Of a stretch of DNA of 64,000 nucleotides, positions 8,688 through 63,880 are shown piece by piece (position 1 is the stretch's first letter; every line of letters starts with the position of its first letter). Both the position numbers and the translations under genes were made by a program. This DNA is from Escherichia phage vB_EcoM_G29. The notes under the pieces are model-generated. The model made no database searches. It had not been told where the DNA came from and saw nothing but the letters and a program-made list of their open reading frames with translations. The stretch is taken from the sequence record MK327940.1, one strand, 5' to 3'.

Positions 8688-8706
8688 TTTATTCTCCTCA
8701 GTAGTA

Positions 8707-8979: not shown

Positions 8980-9005
8980 TTTGATTTCCATTTGGTTTTG
9001 TTTTG

Positions 9006-9050: not shown

Positions 9051-9055
9051 TGAAA

Positions 9056-9313: not shown

Positions 9314-9335
9314 TTTTATTTTCCTAATTAATTTT

Positions 9336-9380: not shown

Positions 9381-9386
9381 GTGAAA

Positions 9387-10071
<685 letters not shown>

Positions 10072-44318: not shown

Positions 44319-45792
44319 TTATGGATAGGTATAGATGATACCAGTTTCTAAAGCAGTTTTATGAATGATGTATCCATTGCGTGATTCTTGAACATCAACT
44401 TCTGGATAGTCTTTCATCATCTTCTGAAGAGTGTAACGATGCAGGTAGTATTTACTATCTGGATCTTCAGTTTTCCAATCTTTACCTTCTTCGGTCATTT
44501 TTTGGATTTCATCCATAACCCACCAACCGCACCAGATATAAGCTGAAGTGCGATGTGGAAGAGGATGAACATAAGGCAATTCACCTTCTGGTTCCGGAGC
44601 AACTTTATCAGTTACCTGAACTTGGCCTGTTGCTTTAACTGTTTTACTATCATAGTCGGTTGCTGTAACGGTTGCAGTAACTTCAATAGTTTGACTTCCA
44701 ATAGATGATGTATCAACCGTGTATACATTAGTTGATTCTTCTACAGGAGAAGAATCTTTCTTCCATGAATATTCGATTTGTGCTTCTTCTGGAGCATCCG
44801 TAACATTAGCAGTAAATGTAGCCGAAGCATCTTGCTGAACGTTAATAGAAGGAGGAGTCAATGTAACCTGTGGATTCATTGTCTTCTTATTAACTGTTAA
44901 TGATACTTCATTAGAAGTAACTTCCTTTTCATTGTAATTTTCAGCCGTTACTTGGGCTACGCATTTAATTCTTTTTACTCCACTTGTAGTTGGAGTATAG
45001 TTAAATGTAGAGTTAGTTTCTCCACCAATTTGAGAATCATCTACATACCATTTATATGTAGCAGACGCTCCATCAGGTTGAGAAACCAAGGCAGCAGTAA
45101 ATTGAACTGGGGTTCCAATTACTCCAGCTGGAGGACTATCAGGAGTTACTGCCAAGGTAGTTGTCTGCGTCTTTTTATTAACAGTCAGTGACACTTCATT
45201 GGAAGTAACTTCCTTTGTATCATAATCTGTCGCGGTTACTTGAGCTACGCACTTAATTGTTTTAACTCCGCTTGCGTCAGGAGTGTAATTGAATGTAGTG
45301 CTAGTTGCTTCGCCCACAGGAGAACCGTCAACGTACCATTGATACGTAGCGTTTGCACCTGATGGCTGTGAAGCTAAGGCAGCCAACGTACCATTGATAC
45401 GTAGCGTTTGCACCTGATGGCTGTGAAGCTAAGGCAGCGGTAAATTCAATTGGAGTTCCAATCACTCCAGCATCAGGGCTACCAGGAGTTACTGCCAAAG
45501 TAGTTGTTTGTGTCTTATTTTGAACTGTGATAGTTGTACTAATTTCAGCTGTTTCAGGTTCAGATTCTGCAACTTGATTGGTTGCAACTACTTTAATAGT
45601 CTTTTGACCGGCAGGTCCTTTTAGTACATAACTAAAAGTTGCTGACGTTTCTTCCTGTGGAGCGTCGTCTACAGTCCAAGCATATGTAATAGGTCCATCT
45701 CCAGTTTGACCACTGGGTGTAGCAGTAAACTGCTGAGTCTGATCTATAACTCCAGTAGGTGTTTTAGGAGTTATATCAACTGTAAAAGCCAT
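44319..45792 (-). pseudogene. hoc: hoc (highly immunogenic outer capsid protein), split by a frameshifting 55-bp tandem duplication
   Basis: Two overlapping ORFs (45328..45792 and 44319..45413) both encode ALASQPSGANATYQWYV; exact 55-bp direct repeat at 45329-45383 and 45384-45438. Confidence 0.85.
45329..45438. repeat. exact 2 x 55-bp tandem direct duplication inside hoc
   Basis: caacgtaccattgatacgtagcgtttgcacctgatggctgtgaagctaaggcagc present twice back to back. Confidence 0.95.
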
Positions 45793-45801
45793 AAGTTATC
45801 C

Positions 45802-46482
45802 TTATTTTAATGTTACGAAAGAAGAATTACGTGTTTCACGAATTAGAACTGATCCGTCACGATTAATGTAGTAAATTAAGCTAAATAAAGTTTGGTGTGC
45901 CGACGCATGTTCAAAACTAGTTGGGTGAGATTTCCAATCTGGGGTTTCAGCAATCCATTGATAAATCCACCAAGGAACAGTGCAGAATCCTGGATTTTTT
46001 CCAATCAGCTGAAGATTCGGACTAAAGTTTTCCGGAAGAGTAAATACAGACGGCTTTTCAGATTCAATAATCTCAGCTACAGCCTGTTCGAATTTTTCTT
46101 CAACAAAAGGAGTATCTTCAATTAAAACAGTGGTATTTTCAGGAATTTTATCCGTTTCTACTACTTCAATTTTAATGTCAGATTTAACCGGAGAATCAAT
46201 CAGAAGTGCTGCCTCTGGATTGACTTCTTCATCGTCATATTTTAATCCGTCTGCGGCATCAGCAGCATCAATTAAGTCTTTAATAGATAACCCATCAGTC
46301 TCTGGCATAGGTTCACTAGCGAGCTTCTGGAGAGCTTCTTCAATATCATTAACGATATTATCAAAAGATTTATTCTTTTTGACCTTTATACCAAACTGTT
46401 CAGCATATTCAGCTAATTTAGCTTTAGCTTCTTTATTATCATCAAGAGCCTTCAGCTCTGCAATATAATCTTTATCTATCAT
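45802..46482 (-). CDS. inh: prohead protease inhibitor Inh-like protein
   Basis: 226 aa; position next to hoc. Confidence 0.8.
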   Translation of the reverse strand: MIDKDYIAELKALDDNKEAKAKLAEYAEQFGIKVKKNKSFDNIVNDIEEALQKLASEPMPETDGLSIKDLIDAADAADGLKYDDEEVNPEAALLIDSPVKSDIKIEVVETDKIPENTTVLIEDTPFVEEKFEQAVAEIIESEKPSVFTLPENFSPNLQLIGKNPGFCTVPWWIYQWIAETPDWKSHPTSFEHASAHQTLFSLIYYINRDGSVLIRETRNSSFVTLK

Positions 46483-46495
46483 AATATTTCCTCAG

Positions 46496-46503
46496 TATAA
46501 ATA
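46496..46503 (+). promoter_or_regulatory. T4 late promoter (TATAAATA) for uvsW
   Basis: Exact TATAAATA about 30 nt upstream of the uvsW ATG. Confidence 0.75.
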
Positions 46504-46532
46504 TAGATATATTTATTACATGGTATTTAGAC

Positions 46533-48044
46533 ATGACTGACATTAAAGTACATTTTTATGATTTTAGTCACGTGAGAATTGATTGCGAAGAAAGTACATT
46601 TCATGAACTCCGTGATTTCTTTAGCTTTGAAGCTGATGGGTATCGTTTTAATCCGAAGTACAAATATGGCCACTGGGATGGACGAATTCGTCTTTTAGAT
46701 TATAATCGCCTTCTTCCATTCGGTTTAGTCGGGCAAATTAAAAAGTTCTGCGATAACTTTGGCTATAAAGCCTGGATTGACCCACAGATTAACGAAAAAG
46801 AAGAATTATCAAGAAAAGATTTTGATGAATGGCTTTCTAAATTAGAAATCTATTCAGGAAATAAAAGAATTGAACCACACTGGTATCAAAAAGATGCAGT
46901 GTTCGAAGGATTAGTTAATCGTCGTAGAATTCTTAATCTTCCAACATCCGCTGGTAAATCTTTAATTCAAGCTTTGCTTGCGCGATATTATTTGGAAAAT
47001 TATGAAGGTAAAATTCTTATCATTGTTCCAACAACTGCTTTAACAACTCAGATGGCTGATGACTTTGTTGATTATCGTTTATTCAGTCATGCAATGATAA
47101 AGAAAATCGGTGGTGGAGCATCAAAAGATGATAAATATAAAAATGATGCACCAGTCGTTGTTGGTACATGGCAAACTGTAGTAAAACAACCGAAAGAATG
47201 GTTCTCACAGTTTGGAATGATGATGAATGATGAATGCCATCTTGCTACAGGAAAAAGTATTTCATCTATCATATCAGGTTTAAATAACTGCATGTTCAAA
47301 TTTGGTCTATCTGGTTCATTACGTGATGGCAAAGCCAATATCATGCAGTATGTTGGAATGTTTGGTGAAATATTTAAGCCAGTAACGACTTCTAAGTTAA
47401 TGGAAGATGGACAAGTAACTGAGCTAAAAATTAATAGTATTTTTCTTCGCTATCCCGATGAGTTCACTACTAAATTAAAGGGAAAAACTTATCAAGAAGA
47501 AATAAAAATTATTACGGGGCTTAGTAAAAGAAATAAATGGATCGCTAAATTGGCTATTAAGCTTGCACAAAAAGATGAAAACGCTTTTGTCATGTTTAAA
47601 CATGTATCACATGGTAAAGCTATTTTCGATTTAATTAAAAATGAATACGATAAAGTTTATTACGTATCAGGGGAAGTTGATACCGAAACCCGCAATATAA
47701 TGAAAACCTTAGCTGAAAATGGTAAAGGAATAATTATAGTAGCTAGTTATGGTGTATTTTCTACTGGTATTTCAGTTAAAAATCTGCATCACGTTGTTTT
47801 AGCGCACGGTGTTAAATCAAAAATCATTGTATTACAAACAATCGGTCGTGTATTACGTAAGCATGGTTCTAAAACAATCGCAACAGTCTGGGACCTCATA
47901 GATGACTGTGGTGTCAAGCCAAAATCTGCTAATACTAAAAAGAAATATGTTCACTTGAACTATCTTTTAAAACACGGCATTGATCGTATTCAGCGCTACG
48001 CAGATGAAAAATTTAATTACGTAATGAAAACAGTTAATTTATAA
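46533..48044 (+). CDS. uvsW: UvsW RNA-DNA / DNA-DNA helicase
   Basis: 503 aa; Walker A-like PTSAGKS, DECH box. Confidence 0.93.
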   Translation: MTDIKVHFYDFSHVRIDCEESTFHELRDFFSFEADGYRFNPKYKYGHWDGRIRLLDYNRLLPFGLVGQIKKFCDNFGYKAWIDPQINEKEELSRKDFDEWLSKLEIYSGNKRIEPHWYQKDAVFEGLVNRRRILNLPTSAGKSLIQALLARYYLENYEGKILIIVPTTALTTQMADDFVDYRLFSHAMIKKIGGGASKDDKYKNDAPVVVGTWQTVVKQPKEWFSQFGMMMNDECHLATGKSISSIISGLNNCMFKFGLSGSLRDGKANIMQYVGMFGEIFKPVTTSKLMEDGQVTELKINSIFLRYPDEFTTKLKGKTYQEEIKIITGLSKRNKWIAKLAIKLAQKDENAFVMFKHVSHGKAIFDLIKNEYDKVYYVSGEVDTETRNIMKTLAENGKGIIIVASYGVFSTGISVKNLHHVVLAHGVKSKIIVLQTIGRVLRKHGSKTIATVWDLIDDCGVKPKSANTKKKYVHLNYLLKHGIDRIQRYADEKFNYVMKTVNL

Positions 48045-48057
48045 GGGCTTCGGCCCT

Positions 48058-48300
48058 TTGGAGAAAAAGATGTTACTAGAATTTAAACAATTTCTTTATG
48101 AAGCTTCTATTGATGAATTTATGGGTAAAATTGCCTCTTGTCAAACATTAGAAGGTTTAGAAGAACTTGAAGCTTATTATAAGAAAAGAGTTAAAGAAAC
48201 TGAATTAAAAGATACTGATGACATCTCAGTCAGAGATGCTTTGGCAGGAAAAAGAGCTGAATTAGAAGATTCAGACGATGAAGTAGAAGAAAGCTTTTAA
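48058..48300 (+). CDS. uvsW.1: UvsW.1-like small acidic protein
   Basis: 80 aa track ORF immediately downstream of uvsW. Confidence 0.7.
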   Translation: MEKKMLLEFKQFLYEASIDEFMGKIASCQTLEGLEELEAYYKKRVKETELKDTDDISVRDALAGKRAELEDSDDEVEESF

Positions 48301-48355
48301 ATTAAAAAAGGCCCAACCAAAAAGGAAGGGCCAAAACTATAGACTAAAGGTCACA

Positions 48356-48523
48356 CTATAGCAAAAGTTGCGTTTCATTTAATTGTTCTTCCGAACTTTC
48401 TGAAACTGGTAGTTCTTTAATGTAATTATAGCAAGGCCCAGGATGTACAGGACCTTTGTCTGTTTCAACAACCAATGCAGAATCGATTGGAGTTTTACAG
48501 ACAACACAAATCTTATCTGACAT
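48356..48523 (-). CDS. small Cys-containing protein (uvsY.-1 position)
   Basis: Hand-translated 55 aa MSDKICVVCKTPIDSALVVETDKGPVHPGPCYNYIKELPVSESSEEQLNETQLLL; below the track size cutoff. Confidence 0.45.
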   Translation of the reverse strand: MSDKICVVCKTPIDSALVVETDKGPVHPGPCYNYIKELPVSESSEEQLNETQLLL

Positions 48524-48551
48524 GATTGTCTCCTCTGAATTATATATCTAT

Positions 48552-48776
48552 TTATACAACTCTCATATGCATATCAATGCCCATATCTTTAGAATAAAAA
48601 TATTCATCAAGATATCCGGCAAATTTTCCTTTAATATAAAGAACATCTTCACCGCACGGGTGGTCGGCCAGGATACGAATATCCTGACGCTTAAGATTAT
48701 GCTTTTTCATTAAGAATTGAATTTCCGTTTCAAATTCTTCTTCATAATTAAAAGCATCATCAATGTTATATCTCAT
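48552..48776 (-). CDS. uvsY.-2: hypothetical protein (uvsY.-2 position)
   Basis: 74 aa track ORF; stop of uvsY overlaps its start. Confidence 0.65.
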   Translation of the reverse strand: MRYNIDDAFNYEEEFETEIQFLMKKHNLKRQDIRILADHPCGEDVLYIKGKFAGYLDEYFYSKDMGIDMHMRVV

Positions 48777-49189
48777 TATTTTCCAGCCTCAAATGCTCGC
48801 ATGTCTTGAATATGCTTAATAGCAAATCCACGTGATTTAATAGCATCAAGAGCTCCGCTACAGAAATCTAATAAAATCCCCCAATACTGTAACGAGGTAT
48901 CAACCTTTAAAACATCCTTATCAGCTGATAGAACTGTCTTCATTTCTGATTTCTCGTAACGATCCATACTAAATTCATCACCATCTCCTCGTCCCGAGTA
49001 GTAGTCTAATTTAGCTTTAAGAGCAACTTTTTTCTGTGCTTCAATTCTAAGCATTTCCTTTTTAATACTTGAATGCTTATTAAGCCATTTACTATATAAC
49101 ATCACATTATTAGCTGCTTCATACTGTAATTTAGTCGAATCTATAAACACATCTTTCTTCAATTCTTCTTGAAGATCTTCTAATCTCAT
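48776..49189 (-). CDS. uvsY: recombination mediator UvsY
   Basis: 137 aa MRLEDLQEELKKDVFIDSTKLQYEAANNVMLYSKWLNK... matches my memory of T4 UvsY. Confidence 0.93.
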   Translation of the reverse strand: MRLEDLQEELKKDVFIDSTKLQYEAANNVMLYSKWLNKHSSIKKEMLRIEAQKKVALKAKLDYYSGRGDGDEFSMDRYEKSEMKTVLSADKDVLKVDTSLQYWGILLDFCSGALDAIKSRGFAIKHIQDMRAFEAGK

Positions 49190-49255
49190 ATTGTTCTCTA
49201 TTCAATTGTTATTGGATGGACTTAGATTCATTATACCACGTTTATACGTGAAGCA

Positions 49256-49654
49256 TTATACTCTATTACTGGAAGCCAGTTGTAGTTTTATCTGCTCAAT
49301 ATCATCAGGGTTATCGATGACTGAAAAGCGTATTTCTACTATCAAAGTATAATCATCATAAACCGGTATTACATTAACTGCTAATTTATCAATACGTGGC
49401 TCATAGTTTCTTACTGCGCTTTCGATATTACGCTCAACCGTGTCAGCAGTAAGAGGAGTCATATTCTCAAAAAGTTGGTCAGATAAATCGCATCCAAATT
49501 CAGGGTCAAACGGTCTTGAACCTTTTCTTGTTGTAATAATTCCTAAAAGACTATTTTTAATTGACCTTAATCCAAGTGATCTTGAAACGTCTTTGTTCCA
49601 ATCCATTTTCATCTCTGGGTCAATATCAGAATAAAGCTTATTAATATTTGCCAT
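49256..49654 (-). CDS. 25: baseplate wedge protein gp25
   Basis: 132 aa; T4 length and synteny. Confidence 0.92.
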   Translation of the reverse strand: MANINKLYSDIDPEMKMDWNKDVSRSLGLRSIKNSLLGIITTRKGSRPFDPEFGCDLSDQLFENMTPLTADTVERNIESAVRNYEPRIDKLAVNVIPVYDDYTLIVEIRFSVIDNPDDIEQIKLQLASSNRV

Positions 49655-50280
49655 TACAATAGCTCAAAGAATTCTTTGAGTCCTCTTATTACATGAGCGT
49701 GAGTTTTTCCACACTCTGGACATTTAATTGGAACAGCCAAATAAACAGTAGGCTTTAAAAGCATATCTTTTATAGCTACAATATCTGACTCTGTGATGAT
49801 AGAATATAAATCTTCTAGTTCCTTTTCATTTAAGTCTTCAACTGGAATGCTTTCCCCGTTAGCATGAATCGTTTCTATACATGATACTATCATGTGGGCT
49901 ATATTTTTATCATCAAAAATTTTAGGGTATCGGAATTTAATTTTAATGTCACCCAGTGTATACCAAAGGTCTTCTGGTGCATCTATTTGTGTATGTAATA
50001 GATTTATATGGGTTGGTATTTCAGTTCCGCAGGTGCACTTCCAGGAGTTTTCGTGATTAACTTCTCCAAGAGAATGCGCCCATAAATGAATCAACAATAG
50101 TTCTGATTCTTGGCGATTTAAATCTTTTGCATTTGTGCAGTCTTTGATTAGCTTTTTAACAATTACTTCTACAGAACCATTATTTTTGGCAGTAATAAGT
50201 TCTAGATATTCTTTAAGAGTAAATGCGCGACAGTTGATTATTTTAGAACCAACTCTCACATCAAATTTGTATTCATACAT
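49654..50280 (-). CDS. 26: baseplate hub protein gp26
   Basis: 208 aa; synteny. Confidence 0.9.
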
Positions 50281-50301
50281 ATTTAGCTCCTTTATTTATC
50301 A

Positions 50302-50313
50302 TATTTATAAATA
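50302..50313. promoter_or_regulatory. overlapping divergent late promoters for gene 26 (minus) and gene 51 (plus)
   Basis: tatttataaata contains TATAAATA on the plus strand (50306-50313) and on the minus strand (50302-50309). Confidence 0.75.
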
Positions 50314-50330
50314 GAATAAAAGGAGCATCT

Positions 50331-51080
50331 ATGGCAAACATTATTCGTTGTAAATTACCAGATGGTGTTCATCGTTTTAAACCATTTACGGTAGAAGATT
50401 ATCGAGATTTTTTGTTAGTTCGAAACGATATAGAGCATCGGTCACCACAAGAACAAAAAGAAATAATTACTGATTTAATTGATGATTATTTTGGAGACTA
50501 TCCGAAGACTTGGCAACCATTTATATTTTTGCAGGTATTTGTAGGTTCAATAGGTAAAACTAAAGTACCAGTCACATTTGTATGTCCAAAATGTAAAAAA
50601 GAAAAGACAGTTCCATTTGAAATATATCAAAAAGAATTAAAGGAACCTATTTTTGATGTAGCTAATGTTAAAATTAAATTAAATTTTCCTTCTGAGTTTT
50701 ATGAAAATAAAGCAAAGATGATTACTGAAAATATTCATTCTGTTCAAGTAGATGAAATGTGGTATGATTGGAAGGAAATTAGTGAATCGAGTCAAATAGA
50801 ACTTGTTGACGCCATCGAGATAGAAACATTAGAAAAAATTCTCGATGCAATGAATCCTATTAATTTAACATTGCACATGTCGTGTTGTGATAAGTACATT
50901 AAAAAATACACTGATATAGTAGATGTGTTTAAGCTATTAGTTAATCCAGATGAGATATTTACTTTTTATCAAATTAATCACACGCTTGTAAAAAGTAATT
51001 ATAGCTTAAATTCAATAATGAAAATGATTCCTGCCGAGCGCGGATTCGTATTAAAACTGATTGAGAAGGATAAACAATAA
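50331..51080 (+). CDS. 51: baseplate hub assembly protein gp51
   Basis: 249 aa; synteny. Confidence 0.9.
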
Positions 51081-52252
51081 TGAGTATGTTGCAACGCCCC
51101 GGATATCCAAATCTCAGCGTTAAATTATTTGAGAGTTATGACGCTTGGAGTAATAATAGATTTGTTGAATTAGCTGCTACTATTACCACATTAACTATGC
51201 GGGATTCTCTTTATGGTCGAAATGAAGGAATGCTACAATTTTATGATTCTAAAAATATCCATACAAAAATGGATGGAAATGAAATAATTCAGATTTCTGT
51301 AGCTAATGCAAACGATATTAATAATGTTAAAACAAGAATTTATGGATGTAAGCATTTTTCTGTATCTGTAGATTCAAAAGGTGATAACATCATTGCTATT
51401 GAATTGGGAACTATTCATTCTATAGAAAATCTTAAATTTGGTAGACCATTTTTCCCTGATGCAGGTGAATCTATAAAAGAAATGCTTGGTGTCATTTATC
51501 AAGACCGCACATTATTAACTCCAGCAATAAATGCTATAAATGCTTATGTTCCTGATATTCCATGGACTAGCACATTTGAAAACTATTTGTCATATGTAAG
51601 AGAAGTTGCTCTAGCGGTAGGAAGCGATAAGTTCGTATTTGTATGGCAAGACATCATGGGAGTTAACATGATGGACTATGATATGATGATAAATCAAGAA
51701 CCATATCCAATGATTGTAGGTGAGCCAACTTTAATAGGTCAATTCGTCCAAGAATTGAAATATCCATTAGCATATGATTTTGTTTGGTTGACTAAATCAA
51801 ACCCGCATAAACGTGATCCAATGAAAAATGCTACTATCTATGCTCATTCATTTTTAGATTCTTCATTACCAATGATTACTACAGGAAAGGGTGAAAACTC
51901 TATTGTAGTGTCAAGGTCAGGTGCTTATTCTGAAATGACTTATAGAAATGGATATGAAGAAGCTATTCGTCTTCAGACTATGGCGCAATATGACGGCTAT
52001 GCTAAATGTTCTACTGTCGGTAATTTTAACTTGACTCCTGGCGTTAAAATTATTTTTAATGATAGTAAAAACCAATTTAAAACAGAATTTTACGTTGATG
52101 AAGTTATTCACGAATTATCAAATAATAATTCCGTAACTCATCTATATATGTTCACTAATGCAACGAAACTGGAAACAATCGACCCAGTTAAGGTTAAAAA
52201 TGAATTTAAAACTGATACTACCACTGAAGAAAGTAGTTCTTCCGATAAGTAA
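51080..52252 (+). CDS. 27: baseplate hub protein gp27
   Basis: 390 aa; synteny. Confidence 0.92.
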
Positions 52253-52733
52253 TAAAGAAGTTTCTATTCCTAAGATGGGTCTTAAACATTATAACATTTT
52301 AAAAGATGTTAAAGGTCCTGATGAAAATTTAAAGCTTCTTATTGATTCTATTTGTCCAAATTTATCACCGGCAGAAGTTGATTTCGTTTCTATTCATTTA
52401 TTGGAATTTAATGGAAAGATTAAATCTCGTAAAGAAATAGATGGCTATACTTATGACATTAATGATGTTTATGTATGCCAAAGATTAGAATTTCAATACC
52501 AAGGAAATACATTTTATTTTAGACCTCCTGGAAAATTTGAACAATTTTTAACGGTGAGCGATATGTTATCTAAATGCTTGCTTAAGGTCAACGATGAAGT
52601 TAAAGAAATTAATTTTCTTGAGATGCCAGCATTCGTTTTAAAATGGGCAAATGATATTTTTACAACTTTAGCAATTCCTGGCCCTAATGGTCCAATAACT
52701 GGAATTGGCAATATTATTGGATTATTTGAATGA
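52200..52733 (+). CDS. 28: baseplate hub protein gp28
   Basis: Start set at ATG 52200 (MNLKLILPL..., 177 aa); track ORF begins further upstream inside gene 27. Confidence 0.8.
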
Positions 52734-54502
52734 AAAAGCCACAAGAAATGCAAACGATGCGTAGAAAAGTTATTTCAGATAATAAACCAACACAGGAAGC
52801 GGCTAAATCCGCTTCCAATACTTTATCTGGACTTAATGACATTTCTACAAAATTGGATGATGCTCAAGCTGCTTCTGAATTAATAGCTCAAACCGTTGAA
52901 GAAAAATCGAATGAAATAATTGGAGCAATTGACAATGTAGAAAGCGCAGTGAGTGATACTACTGCTGGTTCTGAGTTAATTGCTGAAACTGTCGAAATTG
53001 GCAATAATATTAATAAAGAAATCGGTGAATCGCTCGGAAGTAAATTAGATAAATTAACGAGTTTACTCGAGCAAAAAATCCAGACAGCCGGAATTCAACA
53101 AACAGGAACTAGTTTAGCTACGGTTGAAAGCGCTATTCCTGTTAAAGTTGTTGAGGACGATACAGCTGAATCCGTGGGTCCTTTATTACCAGCTCCTGAA
53201 GCAGTTAATAATGATCCTGACGCTGATTTTTTCCCTGCCCCTCAACCAGTTGAACCTAAGCGAGAGTCACCGGAAGAAAAACAGAAAAAAGAAGCATTTA
53301 ATTTAAAATTATCTCAAGCTTTAGATAAATTAACAAAGACTGTTGATTTTGGATTTAAAAAATCCATTTCAATTACTGATAAAATATCAAGCATGCTATT
53401 TAAGTATACTGTCAGTGCTGCTATTGAAGCTGCTAAAATGGTTGCATTAATAATGGCTGTTGTTATTGGAATAGACCTACTGATGGTTCATTTTAAATAT
53501 TGGTCAGATAAATTTTCAAAAGCCTGGGATTTGTTTAGCACTGATTTTAAAACTTTTTCAAGCGAAACCGGAACTTGGGGTCCTTTATTACAGAGCATCT
53601 TTGAATCTATTGATGAAATTAAAAAGTTCTGGGAAGCGGGAGATTGGGGCGGTTTGACGGTAGCTATTGTAGAAGGGCTTGGAAAGGTTCTTTATAATTT
53701 AGGAGAACTTATTCAGCTTGGAATGGCTAAATTATCAGCAGCAATTCTTCGAGTTATTCCTGGTATGAAAGATACTGCTGACGAAGTAGAAGGAAGAGCA
53801 CTGGAAAATTTCCAAAATTCTACTGGAGCATCTCTCAATAAAGAAGACCAGGAAAAAGTTGCGAATTATCAAGATAAACGAATGAATGGAGACCTTGGTC
53901 CGATAGCAGAAGGACTAGACAAAATTGCGAACTGGAAAACTCGTGCATCTAACTGGATTCGTGGTGTTGATAATAAAGAAGCATTGACAACTGATGAAGA
54001 ACGCGCAGCAGAAGAAGAAAAATTAAAGCAGCTTTCACCAGAAGAAAGAAAAAATGCTTTAATGAAGGCTAATGAAGCCCGTGCCGCGATGATTCGTTTT
54101 GAAAAATATGCTGATTCAGCTGATATGAGTAAAGACTCAACGGTTAAATCAGTTGAAGCTGCCTATGAAGACCTTAAAAAACGAATGGATGACCCGGATT
54201 TAAATAATTCACCGGCAGTTAAAAAAGAACTTGCTGCTAGATTTTCTAAAATTGATGCTACTTATCAAGAGCTCAAGAAAAATCAGCCTAATGCCAAACC
54301 TCAAACTTCTGCTAAATCGCCAGAAGCAAAACAAGTCCAGGTAATAGAAAAGAACAAAGCACAGCAAGCTCCTATTCAACAAGCATCTCCTTCAATCAAT
54401 AATACTAATAATGTTATTAAGAAAAATACTGTCGTTCATAATATGACACCCGTAACGAGCACGACTGCTCCTGGTGTATTTGATGCGACTGGAGTTAATT
54501 AA
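52730..54502 (+). CDS. 29: tail tape measure / baseplate hub protein gp29
   Basis: 590 aa; synteny. Confidence 0.92.
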   Translation: MKKPQEMQTMRRKVISDNKPTQEAAKSASNTLSGLNDISTKLDDAQAASELIAQTVEEKSNEIIGAIDNVESAVSDTTAGSELIAETVEIGNNINKEIGESLGSKLDKLTSLLEQKIQTAGIQQTGTSLATVESAIPVKVVEDDTAESVGPLLPAPEAVNNDPDADFFPAPQPVEPKRESPEEKQKKEAFNLKLSQALDKLTKTVDFGFKKSISITDKISSMLFKYTVSAAIEAAKMVALIMAVVIGIDLLMVHFKYWSDKFSKAWDLFSTDFKTFSSETGTWGPLLQSIFESIDEIKKFWEAGDWGGLTVAIVEGLGKVLYNLGELIQLGMAKLSAAILRVIPGMKDTADEVEGRALENFQNSTGASLNKEDQEKVANYQDKRMNGDLGPIAEGLDKIANWKTRASNWIRGVDNKEALTTDEERAAEEEKLKQLSPEERKNALMKANEARAAMIRFEKYADSADMSKDSTVKSVEAAYEDLKKRMDDPDLNNSPAVKKELAARFSKIDATYQELKKNQPNAKPQTSAKSPEAKQVQVIEKNKAQQAPIQQASPSINNTNNVIKKNTVVHNMTPVTSTTAPGVFDATGVN

Positions 54503-54510
54503 GGAATAAT

Positions 54511-55605
54511 ATGGCAATTGTTAAAGAAATAACTGCTGATTTAATTAAAAAGTCCGGTGAGAAAATTTCAGCCGGACAGAGTACTAAATCAGAAGTAGCA
54601 ACTAAAACATACACTGCCCAGTTTCCAACTGGGCGTGCTAGTGGTAATGACACTACAGGGGACTTCCAGGTAACAGATCTATATAAGAATGGATTATTAT
54701 TTACTGCATACAATATGTCATCTAGGGATTCTGGAAGTCTTAGAACGATGAGATCTAACTACTCTTCTTCATCTTCGAGTATTTTACGTACAGCCAGAAA
54801 CACTATCAGTAATACAGTATCAAAACTATCAAATGGACTAATATCAGATAATAATTCAGGAACAATAAGTAAAGTTCCTGTTGCAAATATTCTTTTACCT
54901 AGATCTAAATCTGACGTCGATACGTCATCACATAGATTTAATGATGTTCAAGATAGTCTTATTACAAAAGGTGGAGGTACTGCTACTGGTGTGCTAAGCA
55001 ATATGGCTTCAACCGCAGTATTTGGAGCGCTGGAAAGTATAACACAAGGTATAATGGCTGATAATAATGAACAGATTTATACGACAGCCAGAAGCATGTA
55101 CGGCGGTGCTGAAAATAGAACTAAAGTGTTCACTTGGGATTTGACTCCGCGCTCAACAGAAGATTTAATGGCTATTATTAATATCTATCAGTATTTTAAC
55201 TATTTTTCTTACGGTGAAACTGGTAAATCTCAATATGCTGCTGAAATAAAAGGATATCTAGATGAGTGGTACCGTTCTACTTTTATTGAGCCGTTAACTC
55301 CAGAAGATGCAGTTAAAAATAAGACGTTATTTGAGAAAATGACATCGAGTTTAACTAACGTTCTTGTAGTTTCAAACCCGACAATTTGGATGGTGAAAAA
55401 CTTTGGTGCAACATCTAAGTTTGATGGAAAAACGGAAATATTCGGTCCATGTCAAATCCAGAGTATCAGATTTGATAAAACACCTAATGGTAACTTTAAC
55501 GGATTAGCTATTGCTCCAAATCTCCCTAGTACATTTACTCTCGAGATTACTATGAGAGAAATTATCACGTTAAACCGTGCTTCTTTATATGCGGGGACTT
55601 TTTAA
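54511..55605 (+). CDS. 48: baseplate tail tube cap gp48
   Basis: 364 aa; synteny. Confidence 0.92.
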   Translation: MAIVKEITADLIKKSGEKISAGQSTKSEVATKTYTAQFPTGRASGNDTTGDFQVTDLYKNGLLFTAYNMSSRDSGSLRTMRSNYSSSSSSILRTARNTISNTVSKLSNGLISDNNSGTISKVPVANILLPRSKSDVDTSSHRFNDVQDSLITKGGGTATGVLSNMASTAVFGALESITQGIMADNNEQIYTTARSMYGGAENRTKVFTWDLTPRSTEDLMAIINIYQYFNYFSYGETGKSQYAAEIKGYLDEWYRSTFIEPLTPEDAVKNKTLFEKMTSSLTNVLVVSNPTIWMVKNFGATSKFDGKTEIFGPCQIQSIRFDKTPNGNFNGLAIAPNLPSTFTLEITMREIITLNRASLYAGTF

Positions 55606-56570
55606 TGTATTCTTTAGAGGAATTTAATAATCAAGCAATAAACGCAGATTTCCAACGTAATAATATGTTCAGCTGTGTTTTTGCTACAACTCCATCAACT
55701 AAAAGCTCTTCGTTGATAAGTTCAATTAGCAACTTTTCTTATAATAACTTGGGCCTAAATTCAGATTGGTTAGGATTAACTCAAGGCGATATTAATCAGG
55801 GAATTACTACGCTAATTACAGCTGGCACACAAAAACTGATAAGAAAATCAGGGGTTAGTAAATATCTTATTGGTGCCATGAGTCAACGTACAGTTCAAAG
55901 TTTATTAGGCTCATTTACAGTTGGTACATATTTAATTGACTTCTTTAACATGGCATATAACTCATCTGGATTGATGATATACTCTGTAAAAATGCCAGAG
56001 AATAGATTATCCTATGAAACTGACTGGAACTATAATTCTCCTAATATTCGTATAACTGGGAGAGAATTAGACCCTTTGGTTATTTCATTCAGAATGGATT
56101 CAGAAGCTTGTAACTATCGTGCAATGCAAGACTGGGTTAACGCTGTTCAAGACCCAGTAACTGGATTGCGTGCTTTGCCGCAAGATGTCGAGGCTGATAT
56201 TCAGGTTAATCTTCATTCTCGCAATGGATTACCACATACTGCGGTGATGTTCACTGGATGCATTCCAGTGTCCGTAAGCGCTCCTGAGTTATCATATGAT
56301 GGAGATAACCAAATAACTACATTTGATGTTACTTTTGCGTATAGAGTCATGCAGGCTGGAGCAGTTGATAGACAAGCTGCGCTTGAATGGCTTGAATCTG
56401 CTGCTATAAATGGTATTCAAAGCGTTCTCGGAAATAGTGGAGGTGTCACTGGACTATCTAATTCGCTTTCACGACTTAGTAGATTAGGGGGAACTGCAGG
56501 AAGCATTTCAAATATTAACACTATGACAGGAATTGTCAATTCGCAAAGTAAAATATTAGGAGCAATATAA
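55605..56570 (+). CDS. 54: baseplate tail tube initiator gp54
   Basis: 321 aa; synteny. Confidence 0.92.
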   Translation: MYSLEEFNNQAINADFQRNNMFSCVFATTPSTKSSSLISSISNFSYNNLGLNSDWLGLTQGDINQGITTLITAGTQKLIRKSGVSKYLIGAMSQRTVQSLLGSFTVGTYLIDFFNMAYNSSGLMIYSVKMPENRLSYETDWNYNSPNIRITGRELDPLVISFRMDSEACNYRAMQDWVNAVQDPVTGLRALPQDVEADIQVNLHSRNGLPHTAVMFTGCIPVSVSAPELSYDGDNQITTFDVTFAYRVMQAGAVDRQAALEWLESAAINGIQSVLGNSGGVTGLSNSLSRLSRLGGTAGSISNINTMTGIVNSQSKILGAI

Positions 56571-56573
56571 CAA

Positions 56574-56600
56574 TGGGGACCTTTCGGTCCCCATATTTTT
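56574..56600. terminator. bidirectional terminator after gene 54
   Basis: tggggacctttcggtcccca hairpin followed by tattttta; lies between convergent genes. Confidence 0.75.
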
Positions 56601-56889
56601 ATTTACGGAATGAAATGAAAGCAGCAACTGAAGCAACTAAACTGTCTTCAATATAAACTTCAATTTTTACCGGAGCTTCTGACTCAAATTTACCTGTTAC
56701 TACACCCTGAAAAATACTTTCAGTCTGTTCTGGCTTTGAAAAATTTTCAGAAGGAAAAATTCCGAACTTTTTATCTGTTCCAAAAATTTTGATAAATTCA
56801 TCGTAAACTGCTTCATTAAAAGCATTATCAGCAGGAATAACGCCTTCAACTACAAGTTCTTGACCTAAAAAGCGCAAAGAAGATTTCAT
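56599..56889 (-). CDS. hypothetical protein (alt.-3 position)
   Basis: 96 aa track ORF; early promoter GTTTACA, 17 bp, TATAGT on the minus strand at 56906-56948. Confidence 0.6.
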   Translation of the reverse strand: MKSSLRFLGQELVVEGVIPADNAFNEAVYDEFIKIFGTDKKFGIFPSENFSKPEQTESIFQGVVTGKFESEAPVKIEVYIEDSLVASVAAFISFRK

Positions 56890-56949
56890 TTTGTGTTCCT
56901 CATGTTATGTCAGTAAGACTACTATAACACAACACGAGGGACTTGTAAA

Positions 56950-59007
56950 CTACATCTTGAACTTTTTAGACATTCCGTTGATGTTAACCAAAGAAGCTAA
57001 GATTTGAGAAACTTCGTTTTCCTCTTCTTTTGATTCTTCTACAAGGAATTGATTAAATCCAGCCATTGGACGAACTTCACCAGTTTCCATTAGATGGTCG
57101 CCATCATATACTGATTCTTCTAATTGTTCAGAAGGAGGAACGATTGTACCTTCGATTAGATACTTGTTATAAGCAGTTTCTTTCATAAAGTAAGTACTTA
57201 CTTTATTAATCTTCAGTAAAATTCCACGTGGTAGAATAACTTCAGCTTCTGACGGAAATCCTGATAAATGACCCGGAACGATAACTTTGATTCGCTCAGC
57301 TCCTTTAATTACCATACCCACGCTAGTTTCAGCATCTTCATTAGCATATGTAGAATGACTACCCATATGCATCAAATCTTCTGCATCAACGGAACCTTCT
57401 CCTTCACCAGAAAATACTGCGCCGGAATCATCTAGAGCCATATAGTTTTTACCATGCTCACCGAAGATATTTGGTTTAAGCGATGTGGATACGAAGTTCT
57501 TGAAATAGAACATTTTATTTTCAATGTTATGACGCAAAGTTTTAAAGGTAACTTCTTGTCCACGGTAAAGTGTAGTTCCTGGAGGAAGAACTGAACCTTT
57601 AGCGAATGCAGAATCAAGCGTCTCAATATGTTTAATAGCTCGTTCCATATATTCTTCACGGGTAGAATCTGGTTTACCCAAAAGGAACGAGTTCATTTCA
57701 ACATATGAATCTGCACAATAATCTTCAATTACATCAGATTCAGCTTGAGTTAATCCTTTTGGAGTTACTTCAGTGCTTGCGTATTCATATGCCTGAGCAG
57801 CAGATTCATTAATCAATTTATAAATGCCATTCATGACAAATTGAATAATAGCTGTCTTTTCATCTGGCGTAGCTTTAGAACCTTTAACCAAATCATTGAT
57901 AATTTTCTTAATAACATCAAAGCTATTAGAAATATTAATATCAGCAAGATCGCTTAAAATTTTATCAGTCTTATAATCAAAGAATTCTTTATTCTTTAAA
58001 TATTCTTGAGAACCTTGATATGTTATATCGCTCTGTAACTTGATAGATGGATCACGTAAACGTGCATGGGCTAATGCAATATGATTTCGGAAGCTTTCGA
58101 GTTCATAATCACTAGATTTAAAACGAGAAGCGCTTCTCATACCGCCTATAGCTCCTTTGCTGAAGTTTGAACCAATTTGAATAACGCCAGAGTTCATTGG
58201 TCCTTCTGCTTTATACACCGGAACTTTAGATTCAAACTCTTGATATTTCTTAGCAGCGAAGCTATCACCCTGAAGTGAAGCATCAACAGTAGAATATTGA
58301 GCTTGTGCTGCTAATCGACGACTAATTTTAGTTTTCTGAATAACAGCTTGGTCCGTGCGCTTATCATTTTCTAAAGCAATAGAAGCAGCAACAGCAACAG
58401 CTTTAGGAACAGCATTACCTGTTTTAACATCTACATAAACATCACCAACCTTTGATTCAACTTTTGTGAATAACTCAGTTGAAATAGGAGGTACACCTGG
58501 AATGTCTTCTAAATTGGCATTTTTACGATAAACCATAATATATGCGTACTTTTTATCATAATCCCAGATTTCCTTTAAAAGAACATATCGACCTGCTCCT
58601 TTAGTACGTACTAAACGGTCAGCAATAACTTGCATTTGACGAGCAGCGCCATTTGTTTTACTCTTTAGTACGCGGAATAAGCATGCATCAATTTTATACT
58701 GTTTCATTGTTTGAAGAGCAGTATCAAAAACAGCGTTAATGACGCCAATTGGATTTCCACCCAAGTTTCTAAGTTTAACCAGTGATAATTTCTCGTTGAC
58801 ACCTATCATTACGATATGCATCATTTTATCGCCCGGCTTAACGTTTTTATTTGTATCACCTCCAGAGGTGTATGTACAAAATCTAAATCCAGGAAGCACG
58901 CTTTCTTCGCCGGCTTGAATAGCAAAAATTTGAGGTATTTTATGCTTAGGATTTAAGTTAACAACCGGCGCCGAAGCGCCGTCAAATAATTCTGTAATAA
59001 GTTCCAT
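56950..59007 (-). CDS. Alt-like ADP-ribosyltransferase paralogue
   Basis: 685 aa; shares N-terminus MELITELFD and LYRG...FVSTSL...EAEVILPRG motifs with the adjacent alt but is divergent overall. Confidence 0.8.
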   Translation of the reverse strand: MELITELFDGASAPVVNLNPKHKIPQIFAIQAGEESVLPGFRFCTYTSGGDTNKNVKPGDKMMHIVMIGVNEKLSLVKLRNLGGNPIGVINAVFDTALQTMKQYKIDACLFRVLKSKTNGAARQMQVIADRLVRTKGAGRYVLLKEIWDYDKKYAYIMVYRKNANLEDIPGVPPISTELFTKVESKVGDVYVDVKTGNAVPKAVAVAASIALENDKRTDQAVIQKTKISRRLAAQAQYSTVDASLQGDSFAAKKYQEFESKVPVYKAEGPMNSGVIQIGSNFSKGAIGGMRSASRFKSSDYELESFRNHIALAHARLRDPSIKLQSDITYQGSQEYLKNKEFFDYKTDKILSDLADINISNSFDVIKKIINDLVKGSKATPDEKTAIIQFVMNGIYKLINESAAQAYEYASTEVTPKGLTQAESDVIEDYCADSYVEMNSFLLGKPDSTREEYMERAIKHIETLDSAFAKGSVLPPGTTLYRGQEVTFKTLRHNIENKMFYFKNFVSTSLKPNIFGEHGKNYMALDDSGAVFSGEGEGSVDAEDLMHMGSHSTYANEDAETSVGMVIKGAERIKVIVPGHLSGFPSEAEVILPRGILLKINKVSTYFMKETAYNKYLIEGTIVPPSEQLEESVYDGDHLMETGEVRPMAGFNQFLVEESKEEENEVSQILASLVNINGMSKKFKM

Positions 59008-59010
59008 GAT

Positions 59011-61062
59011 TTATCCTTGAACGAACTTGTAAGGCATGTTTGTAATATCTATGCAAGACGCAATAATTCCAAGAGATGATTCTACTTTCTGTTTAACATT
59101 TGATGAAACAAATGATGCAAAGTCAACTCTATCTTCTATATCACCTGTCATTGTAACTACTTCGCCGGTTTCCATTAAACGGTCACCGTCATAAATTACT
59201 GATTCGGTGAGTTCTTCGGTGGTCATAACTTCAGCTTGAATAAGCTTGTTGTTAGTTTTGACTGTTCCATCATTGTAAGATGCATCAGTTATTTTATTAA
59301 CTTTGACCATTAATCCACGTGGCAAAATGACTTCCATTTCATTTGAAGGCGCTAAACTTCCACCGGGTAAAACAACATTGACTTTATCAGCCCCAGTAAT
59401 AACCCATCCAATTCCGACTAAATTATCGCTAGAATTAACAAGCCCTTCATCATTTTTATCGATAGAAATGTTTAGACGCTTTTCATCTGGTAAAACACCA
59501 ACAGCTGAATCAGTCATCCAAGTACCAAAAATGTTTGGATATAATGATGTTGATACAAAATTTCTAAAATAAAAAACTCGATTTTTTACCATTGCTTCGT
59601 ATATTGAAGGTAACATTCGTTGTGAACGATACAAAGTAATACCTTTTGGTAATCGTTCACCATTTTTAAAGGCTGAATCTAAATTATCAATAGCTTTTTC
59701 TATGTCAGATGCTGTCAAAATACTTGTACGCTCATCTGGATTATATAATCCCAAAAGAGCATTATTTATGTCTACATATCCTGAACCTACGTATTCACGA
59801 ATTCCGCGTTTTTGTGCTGGTGTGTATTTAGATGAATCTTTATTTTCGACTATAGGATGTAATGACCATCCAGCTGTAAGAGCATATCCACGTAATTCTC
59901 TTCGAATAATCTTTGTTTTTATTGCATTCCAAGAATTTTGTACTAACTCATTTGCAGCATCTTGGTTTAAATGCGAATGTTTGTTAATATTTCTTTCAAA
60001 CCAAGCACCTTTATATTTTTCTAAAGTATTATCGACGATAGAAGCAATAGTTTCTAAAGTTTTTATTGAAGTAATAGATTCTTTTCGTAATTTTTCTAAA
60101 GCTTTATTTTTTATTTCTGCATTAATAATGGATTCTTTATCTTCAGGAATTATAGAAGCTTCTCTGAATGCCATCCCAGCTGTAACACTGCTAAGAGCAT
60201 TCTCTAGTGCAAATCCTGAAGTAGAAATTACCGTTAATTCATTAGAATCAGAAATTAAAGGCGCATCAGCGGGTTTATTTAATTCTGCTGCTGAAGCCTC
60301 AAATTTTTGAAACATCGGTGTTTCAAATCTAGAAGATTCCAATGACTGACTTTGTGCAATTGCTCTACGGGAAATTTTAACTTTAACGATTACAGCTTGG
60401 TCAGAACGTTTATCATTTTCTTGTGCAATAGATGCTGCAATTGCCTCATTTTTGGTTACTTGAGCTCCGGTATCTTTATTGATATAAACATCACCGACCT
60501 TCGATTCAACTTTAGTAAAGAGCTCGGTACTAATTTCCGGAACTCCTGGAATGTCTTCTAGTGATACATTTTTGCGATGTATAAGAATATATGCATACTT
60601 TTTATCATAATCCCAGAGTTCCTTAAGAAGGACGTATCTGCCACCTGAACGACTACGGATAAGTCTATCAGCAATAACTTGAATTTGTCGAGCTTGATCA
60701 GCGGTTTTAGACTTAAGAATACGAAGCATACAAGCATCAATTTTATACTGACGCATTGTTTGCATTGCAACAGTAAAAACTGAATTGATATAATTAATTG
60801 GGCTTGGACCAAGACCTTTTAATTTAGCAATTGAACCTTTAGCGGTTAATGTAAAAGGAACAATATGCATCATTTTATCGCCCATTTTTAAATCGCGATT
60901 AGTATCACCTCCAGATGTATAGGTACATAAACGAAAGCCTGGTTGTTCAATTGCATCATCAACATGAACTGAAAAAATTTGCGGTATTTTCTTCTTTGGA
61001 TTTAAGTTTGTAATCGGAAGAGTAGTATCTTCGTCAAATAATTCTGTAATAAGTTCCATCAT
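59011..61062 (-). CDS. alt: ADP-ribosyltransferase Alt (packaged, modifies host RNA polymerase)
   Basis: 683 aa; matches my memory of T4 Alt; LYRS...FVSTSL...EMEVILPRG; late promoter TATAAATA (minus) at 61083-61090. Confidence 0.9.
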   Translation of the reverse strand: MMELITELFDEDTTLPITNLNPKKKIPQIFSVHVDDAIEQPGFRLCTYTSGGDTNRDLKMGDKMMHIVPFTLTAKGSIAKLKGLGPSPINYINSVFTVAMQTMRQYKIDACMLRILKSKTADQARQIQVIADRLIRSRSGGRYVLLKELWDYDKKYAYILIHRKNVSLEDIPGVPEISTELFTKVESKVGDVYINKDTGAQVTKNEAIAASIAQENDKRSDQAVIVKVKISRRAIAQSQSLESSRFETPMFQKFEASAAELNKPADAPLISDSNELTVISTSGFALENALSSVTAGMAFREASIIPEDKESIINAEIKNKALEKLRKESITSIKTLETIASIVDNTLEKYKGAWFERNINKHSHLNQDAANELVQNSWNAIKTKIIRRELRGYALTAGWSLHPIVENKDSSKYTPAQKRGIREYVGSGYVDINNALLGLYNPDERTSILTASDIEKAIDNLDSAFKNGERLPKGITLYRSQRMLPSIYEAMVKNRVFYFRNFVSTSLYPNIFGTWMTDSAVGVLPDEKRLNISIDKNDEGLVNSSDNLVGIGWVITGADKVNVVLPGGSLAPSNEMEVILPRGLMVKVNKITDASYNDGTVKTNNKLIQAEVMTTEELTESVIYDGDRLMETGEVVTMTGDIEDRVDFASFVSSNVKQKVESSLGIIASCIDITNMPYKFVQG

Positions 61063-61111
61063 AGCCTCTCTAGTGTTTATTCTATTTATAAAATTAAAGG
61101 CCCGAAGGCCT

Positions 61112-61300
61112 TTAGTAATCTAGTGGTAAGAGAGTACGATATATTTCAAACTTTGGTCCTTTTTCATAGGCATCAAATGTTTCTGTAAATTTATTATAAG
61201 CGTATGCATCTACAAATTCGAGAATGACTTGTGATACAGAAGTAGAAACATCTCCACCTTCTTTTTGAGCAATGACAATTGTTTCTAAGTAAGCTTTCAT
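61112..61300 (-). CDS. 30.9: hypothetical small protein (30.9 position)
   Basis: 62 aa track ORF; symbol by synteny only. Confidence 0.55.
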   Translation of the reverse strand: MKAYLETIVIAQKEGGDVSTSVSQVILEFVDAYAYNKFTETFDAYEKGPKFEIYRTLLPLDY

Positions 61301-62760
61301 AAACCAGTTACCTCATGAAAATCACCAAATACATCCTCGAATGTATTAGCTTTAGTTTTATCTTCACGTAAACGAATCGCAATCGGAAGAAATAATTTAA
61401 CGTAATCAGTGCGGCCATCAGATTTTAACCAACCGTTGCATTCGCACTCTAGAATTTTTCCAATATAATAATTTTGGTTTTCCATAATGCGAGTACGGTC
61501 AAGTTCATGCGATTTTACACCGGCTTTATCTTTTAAGCCTGAACCAGCATTTACCTTAATTTTTCCACACTCTGATTCAAGAATAAATCCACCCGCTTTA
61601 GTAGGGTCTTTACGGTGAGGATAAATTCCTACAATTTTTAAATCAACATCAATTACTTCTTTAAATTTATAGAGATTTTTTGAACGAGCATTTTCCCACA
61701 ATCCATCGGTATTTTTGAGAATAATACCTTCAAGACCTTGGTCAATATACTTTTTATAAATTACCTTAGCTTCATCTAGGTTATTTACTACCTGGTTTTC
61801 AATTAAAATTACTTTATCATAACCTGATGTCATTTGTTCTAGTTTAGAAAAACGTACATCATATTTCAAACGAAATGCAGGAAGACCGTATATTTCTACC
61901 AACGGGACATAATCCCAGACCTGAAACTTCATGCATTGAGCTTCTTTTTCAGAAATGGTTCCCTTTAAAGATTTATTGGCGATGCCATTAGATGCAGTAC
62001 GTGATTCAGCTACTTCGGCGAATTCTTTAGCTTTACTAATTTCAGGATAAGCATCAAAAAGAAAATCTAGGCCTTCTGGCTCCTTTTCAACTTGCTCATG
62101 GTATACCAATTCGCCATCAATTAACACACCTTCTGGATGAATCTGGCGAGCTTCTGTAGTCATTTTGATTAACTCTTCCTTAAGAAGATCTAATCCTAGA
62201 TATTCATTACCAGCTCGTGATAAAAGACGAACATCATCTAATTCATCACCTCTGACTTCAGCAAAACACCGAGCTCCATCAGCTTTTAACTGGGCAAAGG
62301 CTGGAAATTTGATATTCTTATTAATGCCTTTTTCATCATAAGAACTTGCAAGCATTTGAGGTTGTTCAGGAATTAAACCTGGCCAAACTTTGTTTGCAAT
62401 AGATACTGAAGCACCGCATTCAAGGTCTCGCATCATCACCCGACGCAAAACTTCAACATCATCTTTTTTACCGTCAGTAATATATCCAGTTAATTCCTCA
62501 ATTGCCGCATTTCCAGTCAATTTCCGAGTAGCTAACGTGAATTCAATGAAGTCAAGCATATCGGTAAGAGTCAACATTCCAAAACTCTGGGTAGCAATAC
62601 CCGGTTTAGGCCATTTCTTGATATAATACTGTAACCCACGAGAATAAGTCAGACGATATACTCGTTTAAGCAATTCATTATCTTTATTCTTTTCAAGAAT
62701 TGCTTGCTTCTGCTTAGTTGAACCAATAGATGCTATTTCGTTCAGAATTTTAAGAATCAT
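61297..62760 (-). CDS. 30: ATP-dependent DNA ligase gp30
   Basis: 487 aa; adenylation lysine motif context KADGAR. Confidence 0.95.
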   Translation of the reverse strand: MILKILNEIASIGSTKQKQAILEKNKDNELLKRVYRLTYSRGLQYYIKKWPKPGIATQSFGMLTLTDMLDFIEFTLATRKLTGNAAIEELTGYITDGKKDDVEVLRRVMMRDLECGASVSIANKVWPGLIPEQPQMLASSYDEKGINKNIKFPAFAQLKADGARCFAEVRGDELDDVRLLSRAGNEYLGLDLLKEELIKMTTEARQIHPEGVLIDGELVYHEQVEKEPEGLDFLFDAYPEISKAKEFAEVAESRTASNGIANKSLKGTISEKEAQCMKFQVWDYVPLVEIYGLPAFRLKYDVRFSKLEQMTSGYDKVILIENQVVNNLDEAKVIYKKYIDQGLEGIILKNTDGLWENARSKNLYKFKEVIDVDLKIVGIYPHRKDPTKAGGFILESECGKIKVNAGSGLKDKAGVKSHELDRTRIMENQNYYIGKILECECNGWLKSDGRTDYVKLFLPIAIRLREDKTKANTFEDVFGDFHEVTGL

Positions 62761-63026
62761 TGTTCATCCTTTAGAGTTTGGTTTACAGCTCTATTATAAA
62801 TCAATTCATCATTAAGCTCAGTCAAAGACCTGTGGTACGTGGTTCTAACTTTATTTCCTTGCATCCAGTGCTTGACGTAAATGAAACCTTGCTCTACACA
62901 TTTTTTAAAAATTCGTTCGTCTTTTTGAGCTCGGAATTCTGGATTGCATCTAAAAAATTGATTTACGTGACCGTAATCACGTGTAGTATTACCTTCATTT
63001 TCATAAATAGTATGAACAACAAACAT
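62757..63026 (-). CDS. 30.1: hypothetical protein (30.1 position)
   Basis: 89 aa track ORF; start overlaps the upstream stop. Confidence 0.65.
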   Translation of the reverse strand: MFVVHTIYENEGNTTRDYGHVNQFFRCNPEFRAQKDERIFKKCVEQGFIYVKHWMQGNKVRTTYHRSLTELNDELIYNRAVNQTLKDEQ

Positions 63027-63880
63027 TAGAATGCTCCTTGGAAAATATTATCACCACTACCACTAGTAAGTCTATTAAAATACCCTGCGTCGCCAGGCTT
63101 AATATAACTCCACGTATGGAATGGATGCATCTGATGTGAGTGTGTATAATATGGATGATATGGATTATAAGGATTAAATCCAGGAGTTCTCCAAGTAGTG
63201 TTCCAACGAAAAGAATCGTTTTTAATCATCTTCTCAATTACATCTTTTATAACTTTTTCACTATCAAAACTTTCTTTATTTTCCTTCGATGGAAAAAGCT
63301 TATTCTCTACATCATTCCATGTATAAACTCGCTGTGCAGTTTTTGGAATACTGTCACGTTCCCCTCGAGCCATCCAATAAACAGGAACATTTAATATTTC
63401 ACTCGCGTGATCGCAGTGGTGAGCGAGATCGTCAATATAACAAATTACGTTATATTTCTCTTTTGCCTTTTTGAACAACTCTTCTTTTGAAGAATCATGA
63501 CCACACATCAATACTTCTGAGAAGGCACCAGGAAAAAGAGCATTCAAATTAAATTGACGATTCAGCAGAGCGTCAATAGAATCACCCAATGCTGTAACAG
63601 CTACAAAATTATAATCTTCTTTTAATTTGTTAATTACACACAGGGCATCTTTATATGGAGACAAGTAACGAATAAAATCTGAACGATTGTATTTTTCAAT
63701 TAACTTGACGCCAAGTTCTTCATCACAATTAAAGAGTTTACCAGGAGAAATAAATTTCTCATCTTGGATCATTTTTAAAATATGTTCTAACGGAAGATTA
63801 TATTTCTGAGCAAAATAAGGAAGGCCTGATTGCCAGCTTAAACATACTCCATCAATATCAGTTAAAATAGTAGGCTTCAT
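63026..63880 (-). CDS. 30.2: hypothetical protein with HAD-like DxDG motif (30.2 position)
   Basis: 284 aa; N-terminal ILTDIDGV resembles HAD phosphatase motif I. Confidence 0.65.
   Translation of the reverse strand: MKPTILTDIDGVCLSWQSGLPYFAQKYNLPLEHILKMIQDEKFISPGKLFNCDEELGVKLIEKYNRSDFIRYLSPYKDALCVINKLKEDYNFVAVTALGDSIDALLNRQFNLNALFPGAFSEVLMCGHDSSKEELFKKAKEKYNVICYIDDLAHHCDHASEILNVPVYWMARGERDSIPKTAQRVYTWNDVENKLFPSKENKESFDSEKVIKDVIEKMIKNDSFRWNTTWRTPGFNPYNPYHPYYTHSHQMHPFHTWSYIKPGDAGYFNRLTSGSGDNIFQGAF

Follow-up and report, generated by a model that had tools for sequence, protein, structure and literature searches.

As written in the window analysed here (the whole stretch of DNA, 64,000 nt in length), the hoc gene is interrupted by a 55-bp segment that occurs twice in succession. 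The locus thus raises the question of whether the phage had lost its Hoc protein through a duplication or whether the second copy entered the sequence when the genome was assembled. The preliminary description of this DNA gave prominence to the first reading, a hoc-null isolate with an altered virion surface. The features needed for the argument, in window coordinates, are the following.

44319..45792, minus strand: hoc (Hoc-like head decoration protein) as written, 1474 nt including the extra 55.
45328..45792, minus strand: apparent N-terminal hoc ORF, 154 aa, made up of 136 native and 18 frameshifted residues.
44319..45413, minus strand: apparent C-terminal hoc ORF, 364 aa, opening at an internal GTG (45413) inside a repeat copy.
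45329..45383: 55-bp unit, copy 1 in plus-strand order; along the gene this copy comes second and is translated out of frame (GCLSFTAIRCKRYVSMVR up to the stop).
45384..45438: 55-bp unit, copy 2, identical to copy 1.

The exact tandem duplication described earlier at 45329-45438 was recovered by TRF, which reported a period of 55, 2.0 copies, 100% matches, 0 indels and a score of 220, and by a string comparison in which direct reading showed the two 55-mers to be identical and abutting. The repeated unit is CAACGTACCATTGATACGTAGCGTTTGCACCTGATGGCTGTGAAGCTAAGGCAGC, and at the junction between the copies ...GCTAAGGCAGC is followed immediately by CAACGTACCATT... Outside the two copies the period-55 identity does not continue (0 bases on the left, 0 on the right); the junctions therefore lack microhomology, in keeping with a cut made at an arbitrary point. 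In 64 kb, chance would yield an exact tandem repeat of 55 bp ~64000 x 4^-55 times, effectively zero, and the hoc repeat is therefore not a chance match. It is also the sole exact 55-nt close repeat within the 64-kb window, and string comparison found no second site for the unit there. The nearest relative of the unit within the window is a paralogous stretch in the neighbouring Ig-like domain (45041-45095), which is 69% identical and 288 bp away. Given this divergence and distance, and the confinement of the duplication to one domain, recombination between Ig-like domain repeats and an assembly graph break at them were both rejected as its origin.

Because 55 leaves a remainder of 1 when divided by three, hoc appears frameshifted. 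The 154-aa ORF (45328-45792, minus strand) ends in ...ATYQWYVGCLSFTAIRCKRYVSMVR before its stop codon, and its 136 native plus 18 out-of-frame residues bear out the earlier statement that the upstream frame ends 18 codons into the first copy; the downstream frame likewise reopens inside a repeat copy, with the GTG at 45413 as the start of ORF 44319-45413. When one 55-bp copy is taken out, hoc measures 1419 nt and encodes an uninterrupted protein of 472 aa, the continuous Hoc that had been foreseen. The collapsed gene is 100% identical to G4500_00197 / QBO65873.1 and to the hoc gene of phage G4507. Its 472-aa product matches PHROG 1149 'Hoc-like head decoration' (E = 4e-139), matches the C-terminal Hoc model phrog_21694 over residues 408-472, and matches Pfam PKD and Ig models, and this architecture agrees with that published for Hoc, in which the capsid-binding domain is C-terminal (PMC10385173). 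By these profile matches, the collapsed protein is identified as a member of the Hoc family. On one side hoc adjoins inh (45802-46482), whose product was assigned PF26097/PF26098, with uvsW lying beyond inh; on the other side there are small ORFs and then an RNA ligase gene.

Two further observations concern the variability of this neighbourhood. Hoc is 472 aa long here versus 366-379 aa in many relatives with an identical Inh neighbour, and the length difference among relatives is about one 288-bp repeat unit, two adjacent units being ~80% identical by TRF (a value measured on the hoc gene of Escherichia phage BYEP02). The number of Ig-like modules in hoc appears to vary among otherwise near-identical Tequatroviruses. 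In addition, several close relatives have a 205-aa GIY-YIG gene (SegE-like, annotated as 'group I intron endonuclease') between inh and uvsW, located at 2334-2951 in loci L011, L014 and L017 and at 109980-110597 in G4507. The gene is absent from the window (about 46483-46532) and from G4500, and is a presence/absence polymorphism of a homing endonuclease next to hoc.

A megablast search against 50,697 phage records matched the window to Escherichia phage vB_EcoM_G4500 (MK327945.1), a Tequatrovirus from manure in Germany, and the two sequences were then compared base by base. Apart from two indels, the window corresponds to MK327945.1 64001-128122 with 100% identity in three blocks.

Window 1-45383: MK327945.1 64001-109383, 100% identical.
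Window 45384-60016: MK327945.1 109329-123961, 100% identical.
Window 59962-64000: MK327945.1 124084-128122, 100% identical.

Both indels in these 64 kb are built on an exact 55-mer. The first is the additional 55 bp of the window in hoc, where MK327945.1 carries the unit once and its 1419-nt gene (G4500_00197) is uninterrupted. At the second, it is MK327945.1 that is longer, by 177 bp at 123962-124138, and the window has the 55-mer once (59962-60016) and no junk. Of these 177 bp, the first 122 are Nextera adapter read-through (CTGTCTCTTATACACATCTCCGAGCCCACGAGAC-index-ATCTCGTATGCCGTCTTCTGCTTG) and poly-A, after which the 55-mer that precedes them is repeated. This adapter scar (123907-124138) lies inside an alt-like gene, which as deposited (G4500_00214 / QBO65890.1) is 2226 nt long versus 2049 nt in G4507, the scar making it 177 nt (59 codons) too long; at the same site the window has an intact 683-aa ORF (59011-61062). 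The window and MK327945.1 appear, from this comparison, to be two versions of one genome that disagree only at 55-mer overlap scars in different places, as two assemblies of a single circle would produce. Base 1 of the window is position 64001 of MK327945.1, and that record takes the rIIA end as its start.

The window also contains two families of short intergenic direct repeats, both located around the tRNA cluster region. One is 71 nt long (4250-4320, 8703-8773, 9001-9071 and 9332-9402); the other is 40 nt long (4744-4783, 5430-5469 and 5987-6026) and contains a GC-rich hairpin resembling a terminator. Both families are genuine, since they are common to the G4500 record.

Extending the comparison with T4-like hoc genes, as the preliminary description had recommended, supports a single ancestral copy, in that MK327945.1 and the relatives have one copy and an intact hoc. 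The phage-search records listed match the region in 2 pieces over 136 bp, which corresponds to a single copy, and in all 10 contigs with an identical Inh, hoc is intact (366-472 aa) and the 55-mer occurs no more than once. When the phage collection (50,697 records) was queried with the 40 bp centred on the point where the copies meet, no match was obtained, and IMG/VR, GTDB genomes and JGI metagenomes likewise lacked the 41-mer across this junction. In a gene index of 153 billion positions, there was no gene with exactly the 154-aa split product as its product, and none with exactly the 364-aa product. This distribution bears on the idea that the duplication is functional, either as a programmed frameshift or recoding site or as a phase-variable switch of Hoc display. 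The overlap of the two frames speaks for such a role and nothing beyond it does, whereas the duplication is unique to one sequence, all relatives, even those with 100% identity, show one copy and a continuous ORF, and a simple-repeat tract of the phase-variation type is absent. We regard a functional duplication as highly improbable, the least credible of the explanations considered here.

T4-like genomes are circularly permuted. From such a genome, a de Bruijn short-read assembler would close the circle and emit a linear contig whose last k bases equal its first k, and SPAdes with a final k of 55 would leave an exact 55-base terminal repeat on the contig. If this contig were then cut and rotated so as to begin at the usual T4 origin (the rIIA end), its old end being fused to its old start with the overlap copy untrimmed, the former ends would meet inside the sequence as a perfect tandem duplication of 55 bp, wherever they happened to lie. 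In the present case the old contig ends would have fallen in hoc, and with 55 not being a multiple of 3 the gene would appear frameshifted.

The properties of the hoc repeat agree with this scheme. Its length (55) equals the final k of the G4500 assembly, given as SPAdes 3.12.0 '(55kmer)', and the methods of the same study state that T4-like contigs were re-arranged after assembly to match published relatives (Korf et al. 2019). The copies are perfect and abutting, with an arbitrary breakpoint that lacks microhomology; the phage is a Tequatrovirus, and as such circularly permuted; and the extra copy is absent from MK327945.1 and from the nearest genomes. These are the traits of a SPAdes circular-contig overlap: a length of exactly k = 55, perfect copies, an arbitrary cut, a circularly permuted genome and absence from independent assemblies. 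The one difference is that such overlaps normally lie at record ends, whereas the hoc repeat is internal and tandem, as an untrimmed rotation produces. By every in-silico criterion tested, the hoc repeat agrees with this known overlap; it represents no new kind of element and very probably does not exist in the phage itself.

Our favoured explanation is that one of the two copies, 45329..45383 or 45384..45438, is the redundant k = 55 end overlap of a circular SPAdes contig. We assign a probability of roughly 0.88 to the reading in which the hoc duplication, instead of being a mutation, was left by an untrimmed contig-end overlap (k = 55) when G4500, or a phage identical to it, was assembled as a circle. 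This reading is derived from comparison of sequences and records rather than observed directly. We infer that the source assembly came from this k = 55 procedure or one equivalent to it, with contig ends that lay in hoc, and the link of the window to the k = 55 pipeline of Korf et al. 2019 is circumstantial.

Further scars of this length are present in the same set of genomes. A search with the adapter junk located them in four T4-like genomes of Korf et al. 2019, all of which were checked, and in 4 of 4 (G4500, G4507, KAW1E185 and G10400) an exact 55-bp direct repeat with an offset of 177 surrounds 122 bp of adapter plus poly-A. In addition to the G4500 scar described above, their positions are as follows.

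G4507 (MK327946.1 / NC_054919.1), 76583-76814: scar inside gp5.
KAW1E185 (MK373781.1 / NC_054922.1), locus 352-583: scar.
G10400 (MK327937.1), locus 350-581: scar.

In G4507, gp5 (baseplate hub, tail lysozyme) is annotated as two CDSs (76072-76752 and 76768-77976). The gp5 gene is essential, and adapter sequence within it cannot be biological. These four scars resemble the hoc repeat in occurring in the same phage group (for G4500, in the same genome), in having the same length of 55 and in causing similar annotation damage. They differ from it in that the 55-mers are separated by 122 bp of adapter plus poly-A at an offset of 177, whereas the hoc repeat is clean, has an offset of 55 and lies at another position. 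Adapter junk separated the 55-mers in every sibling-record scar found. A genome-wide scan of G4507 revealed no clean 55 + 55 tandem, and G4498 and G9062 have no extra 55 bp in the 24-kb region compared. A pure 55 + 55 tandem was thus not found in any deposited genome of Korf et al. 2019, with genome-wide scanning covering G4507. Internal repeats of this kind in short-read phage assemblies were elsewhere shown to be artefacts by Sanger sequencing (PMC10438801).

The overlap reading has to be weighed against a genuine, very recent 55-bp tandem duplication, produced by slippage or illegitimate recombination, that inactivated hoc in a stock of the G4500 lineage. In that case the phage would make a 154-aa fragment without the C-terminal capsid-binding domain, and its capsids would be without Hoc fibres. 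Several points speak for such an allele. It is established knowledge from T4 that hoc is non-essential, so that a real null allele would be viable, and the C-terminal position of the capsid-binding domain (PMC10385173) means that the frameshift would give a null. No SD-like sequence was found before the internal GTG/TTG start candidates of hoc, so that restart at the internal GTG is unlikely; rescue of hoc by translational restart or recoding was in fact rejected on this ground and on the ground that the feature is not conserved. The hoc gene is also annotated in two parts in MZ501066.1 (FriedrichMiescher), MZ234018.1 (101117BS1) and OR887633.1 (vb_GEC_SH_GT), whose matched spans deviate from 1419 nt by +1, -1 and +1 nt, respectively; disruptions of hoc by such 1-nt indels are at least on record, and the three split genes could be real frameshift alleles or homopolymer sequencing errors. 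Finally, the window differs from the GenBank record MK327945.1, and a different stock is therefore possible.

A real duplication would nevertheless need to be 55 bp long by coincidence with the documented k-mer and with the sibling scars in 4 of 4 genomes, and the window shows no difference from G4500 in 64 kb apart from 55-mer scars. The junction and both split products are moreover absent from all collections searched. Its endpoints are also devoid of microhomology (0 bases at either edge). Slippage-type duplications usually have short direct repeats at their endpoints, and homology-independent events exist; the absence of microhomology does not strictly exclude duplication by slippage or illegitimate recombination. 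Taken together, these points make a genuine duplication in hoc very unlikely, and we consider its homology-independent form, a spontaneous Hoc-less phage in which the length equals the assembler k-mer by coincidence, to be similarly improbable.

T4 strains with hoc deletions or amber mutations are used in the laboratory for display and mucus-adherence studies. If the duplication were real, the phage would resemble these T4 hoc-null mutants in having capsids without Hoc through loss of the C-terminal capsid-binding domain (PMC10385173), with the difference that their lesions are verified and the lesion in the window bears the signature of an assembler parameter. The hoc-null isolate put forward in the preliminary description is thus not upheld, in view of a repeat length equal to the SPAdes k, the sibling scars, the lack of microhomology and a junction found nowhere else. 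Its more general statement, that a perfect duplication implies a recent event in an isolate or an assembly artefact, is better borne out in its second part, and perfection at the length of k points away from mutation and to an untrimmed overlap.

Another way in which a non-biological duplication could have arisen is a different manual or scripted editing error, for example the joining of overlapping contigs or of PCR/Sanger pieces, or a coordinate slip during re-orientation, with 55 bp as an accidental length. The outcome would likewise be a duplication that the phage does not have, and a parallel is provided by Escherichia phage BYEP02 (OR757454.1), a genome from another laboratory with three imperfect 77-bp tandem repeats (92-97%) in 4.5 kb.

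BYEP02 locus 641-795: 77-bp repeat in the RNA ligase gene.
BYEP02 locus 1716-1869: 77-bp repeat in hoc.
BYEP02 locus 3109-3265: 77-bp repeat in inh.

Each of these genes is split or disturbed, and the hoc span of BYEP02 is 77 nt too long. The repeats resemble joins of contigs at k = 77 in an assembly from a mixed or variant population, and BYEP02 is a precedent for joins of k-mer length, hoc included, that says nothing direct about the window. The BYEP02 record, at 154.7 kb, is also short for a T4-like phage. For the duplication studied here, equality with the SPAdes k = 55 and the 55-mer scars of the sibling genomes make a k-mer overlap the more economical account, and an unrelated editing error is very unlikely, less probable still than a genuine duplication.

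In the real phage, the 55-bp unit most likely occurs once and the 472-aa Hoc is intact. Were the duplication genuine after all, it would add one more null allele of a long-known dispensable gene and would carry little biological weight. The consequences of the artefact reading are wider, beginning with deposited sequences. Adapter-containing 55-mer scars occur in at least four deposited genomes of Korf et al. 2019, two of which are also in RefSeq (the affected records are MK327945, MK327946/NC_054919, MK373781/NC_054922 and MK327937), where they split the annotation of gp5 (G4507) or pad a deposited protein with 59 spurious codons (G4500). Such scars would be caught automatically by a simple screen for exact repeats of 55, 77, 99 or 127 nt in tandem or near-tandem arrangement. 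In hoc, an untrimmed overlap of 55 bases makes a structural gene that is whole look like two pseudo-ORFs. This scar would distort annotation, the counting of pangenome genes and pseudogenes, and any inference on the role of Hoc in mucus adherence or display for this phage.
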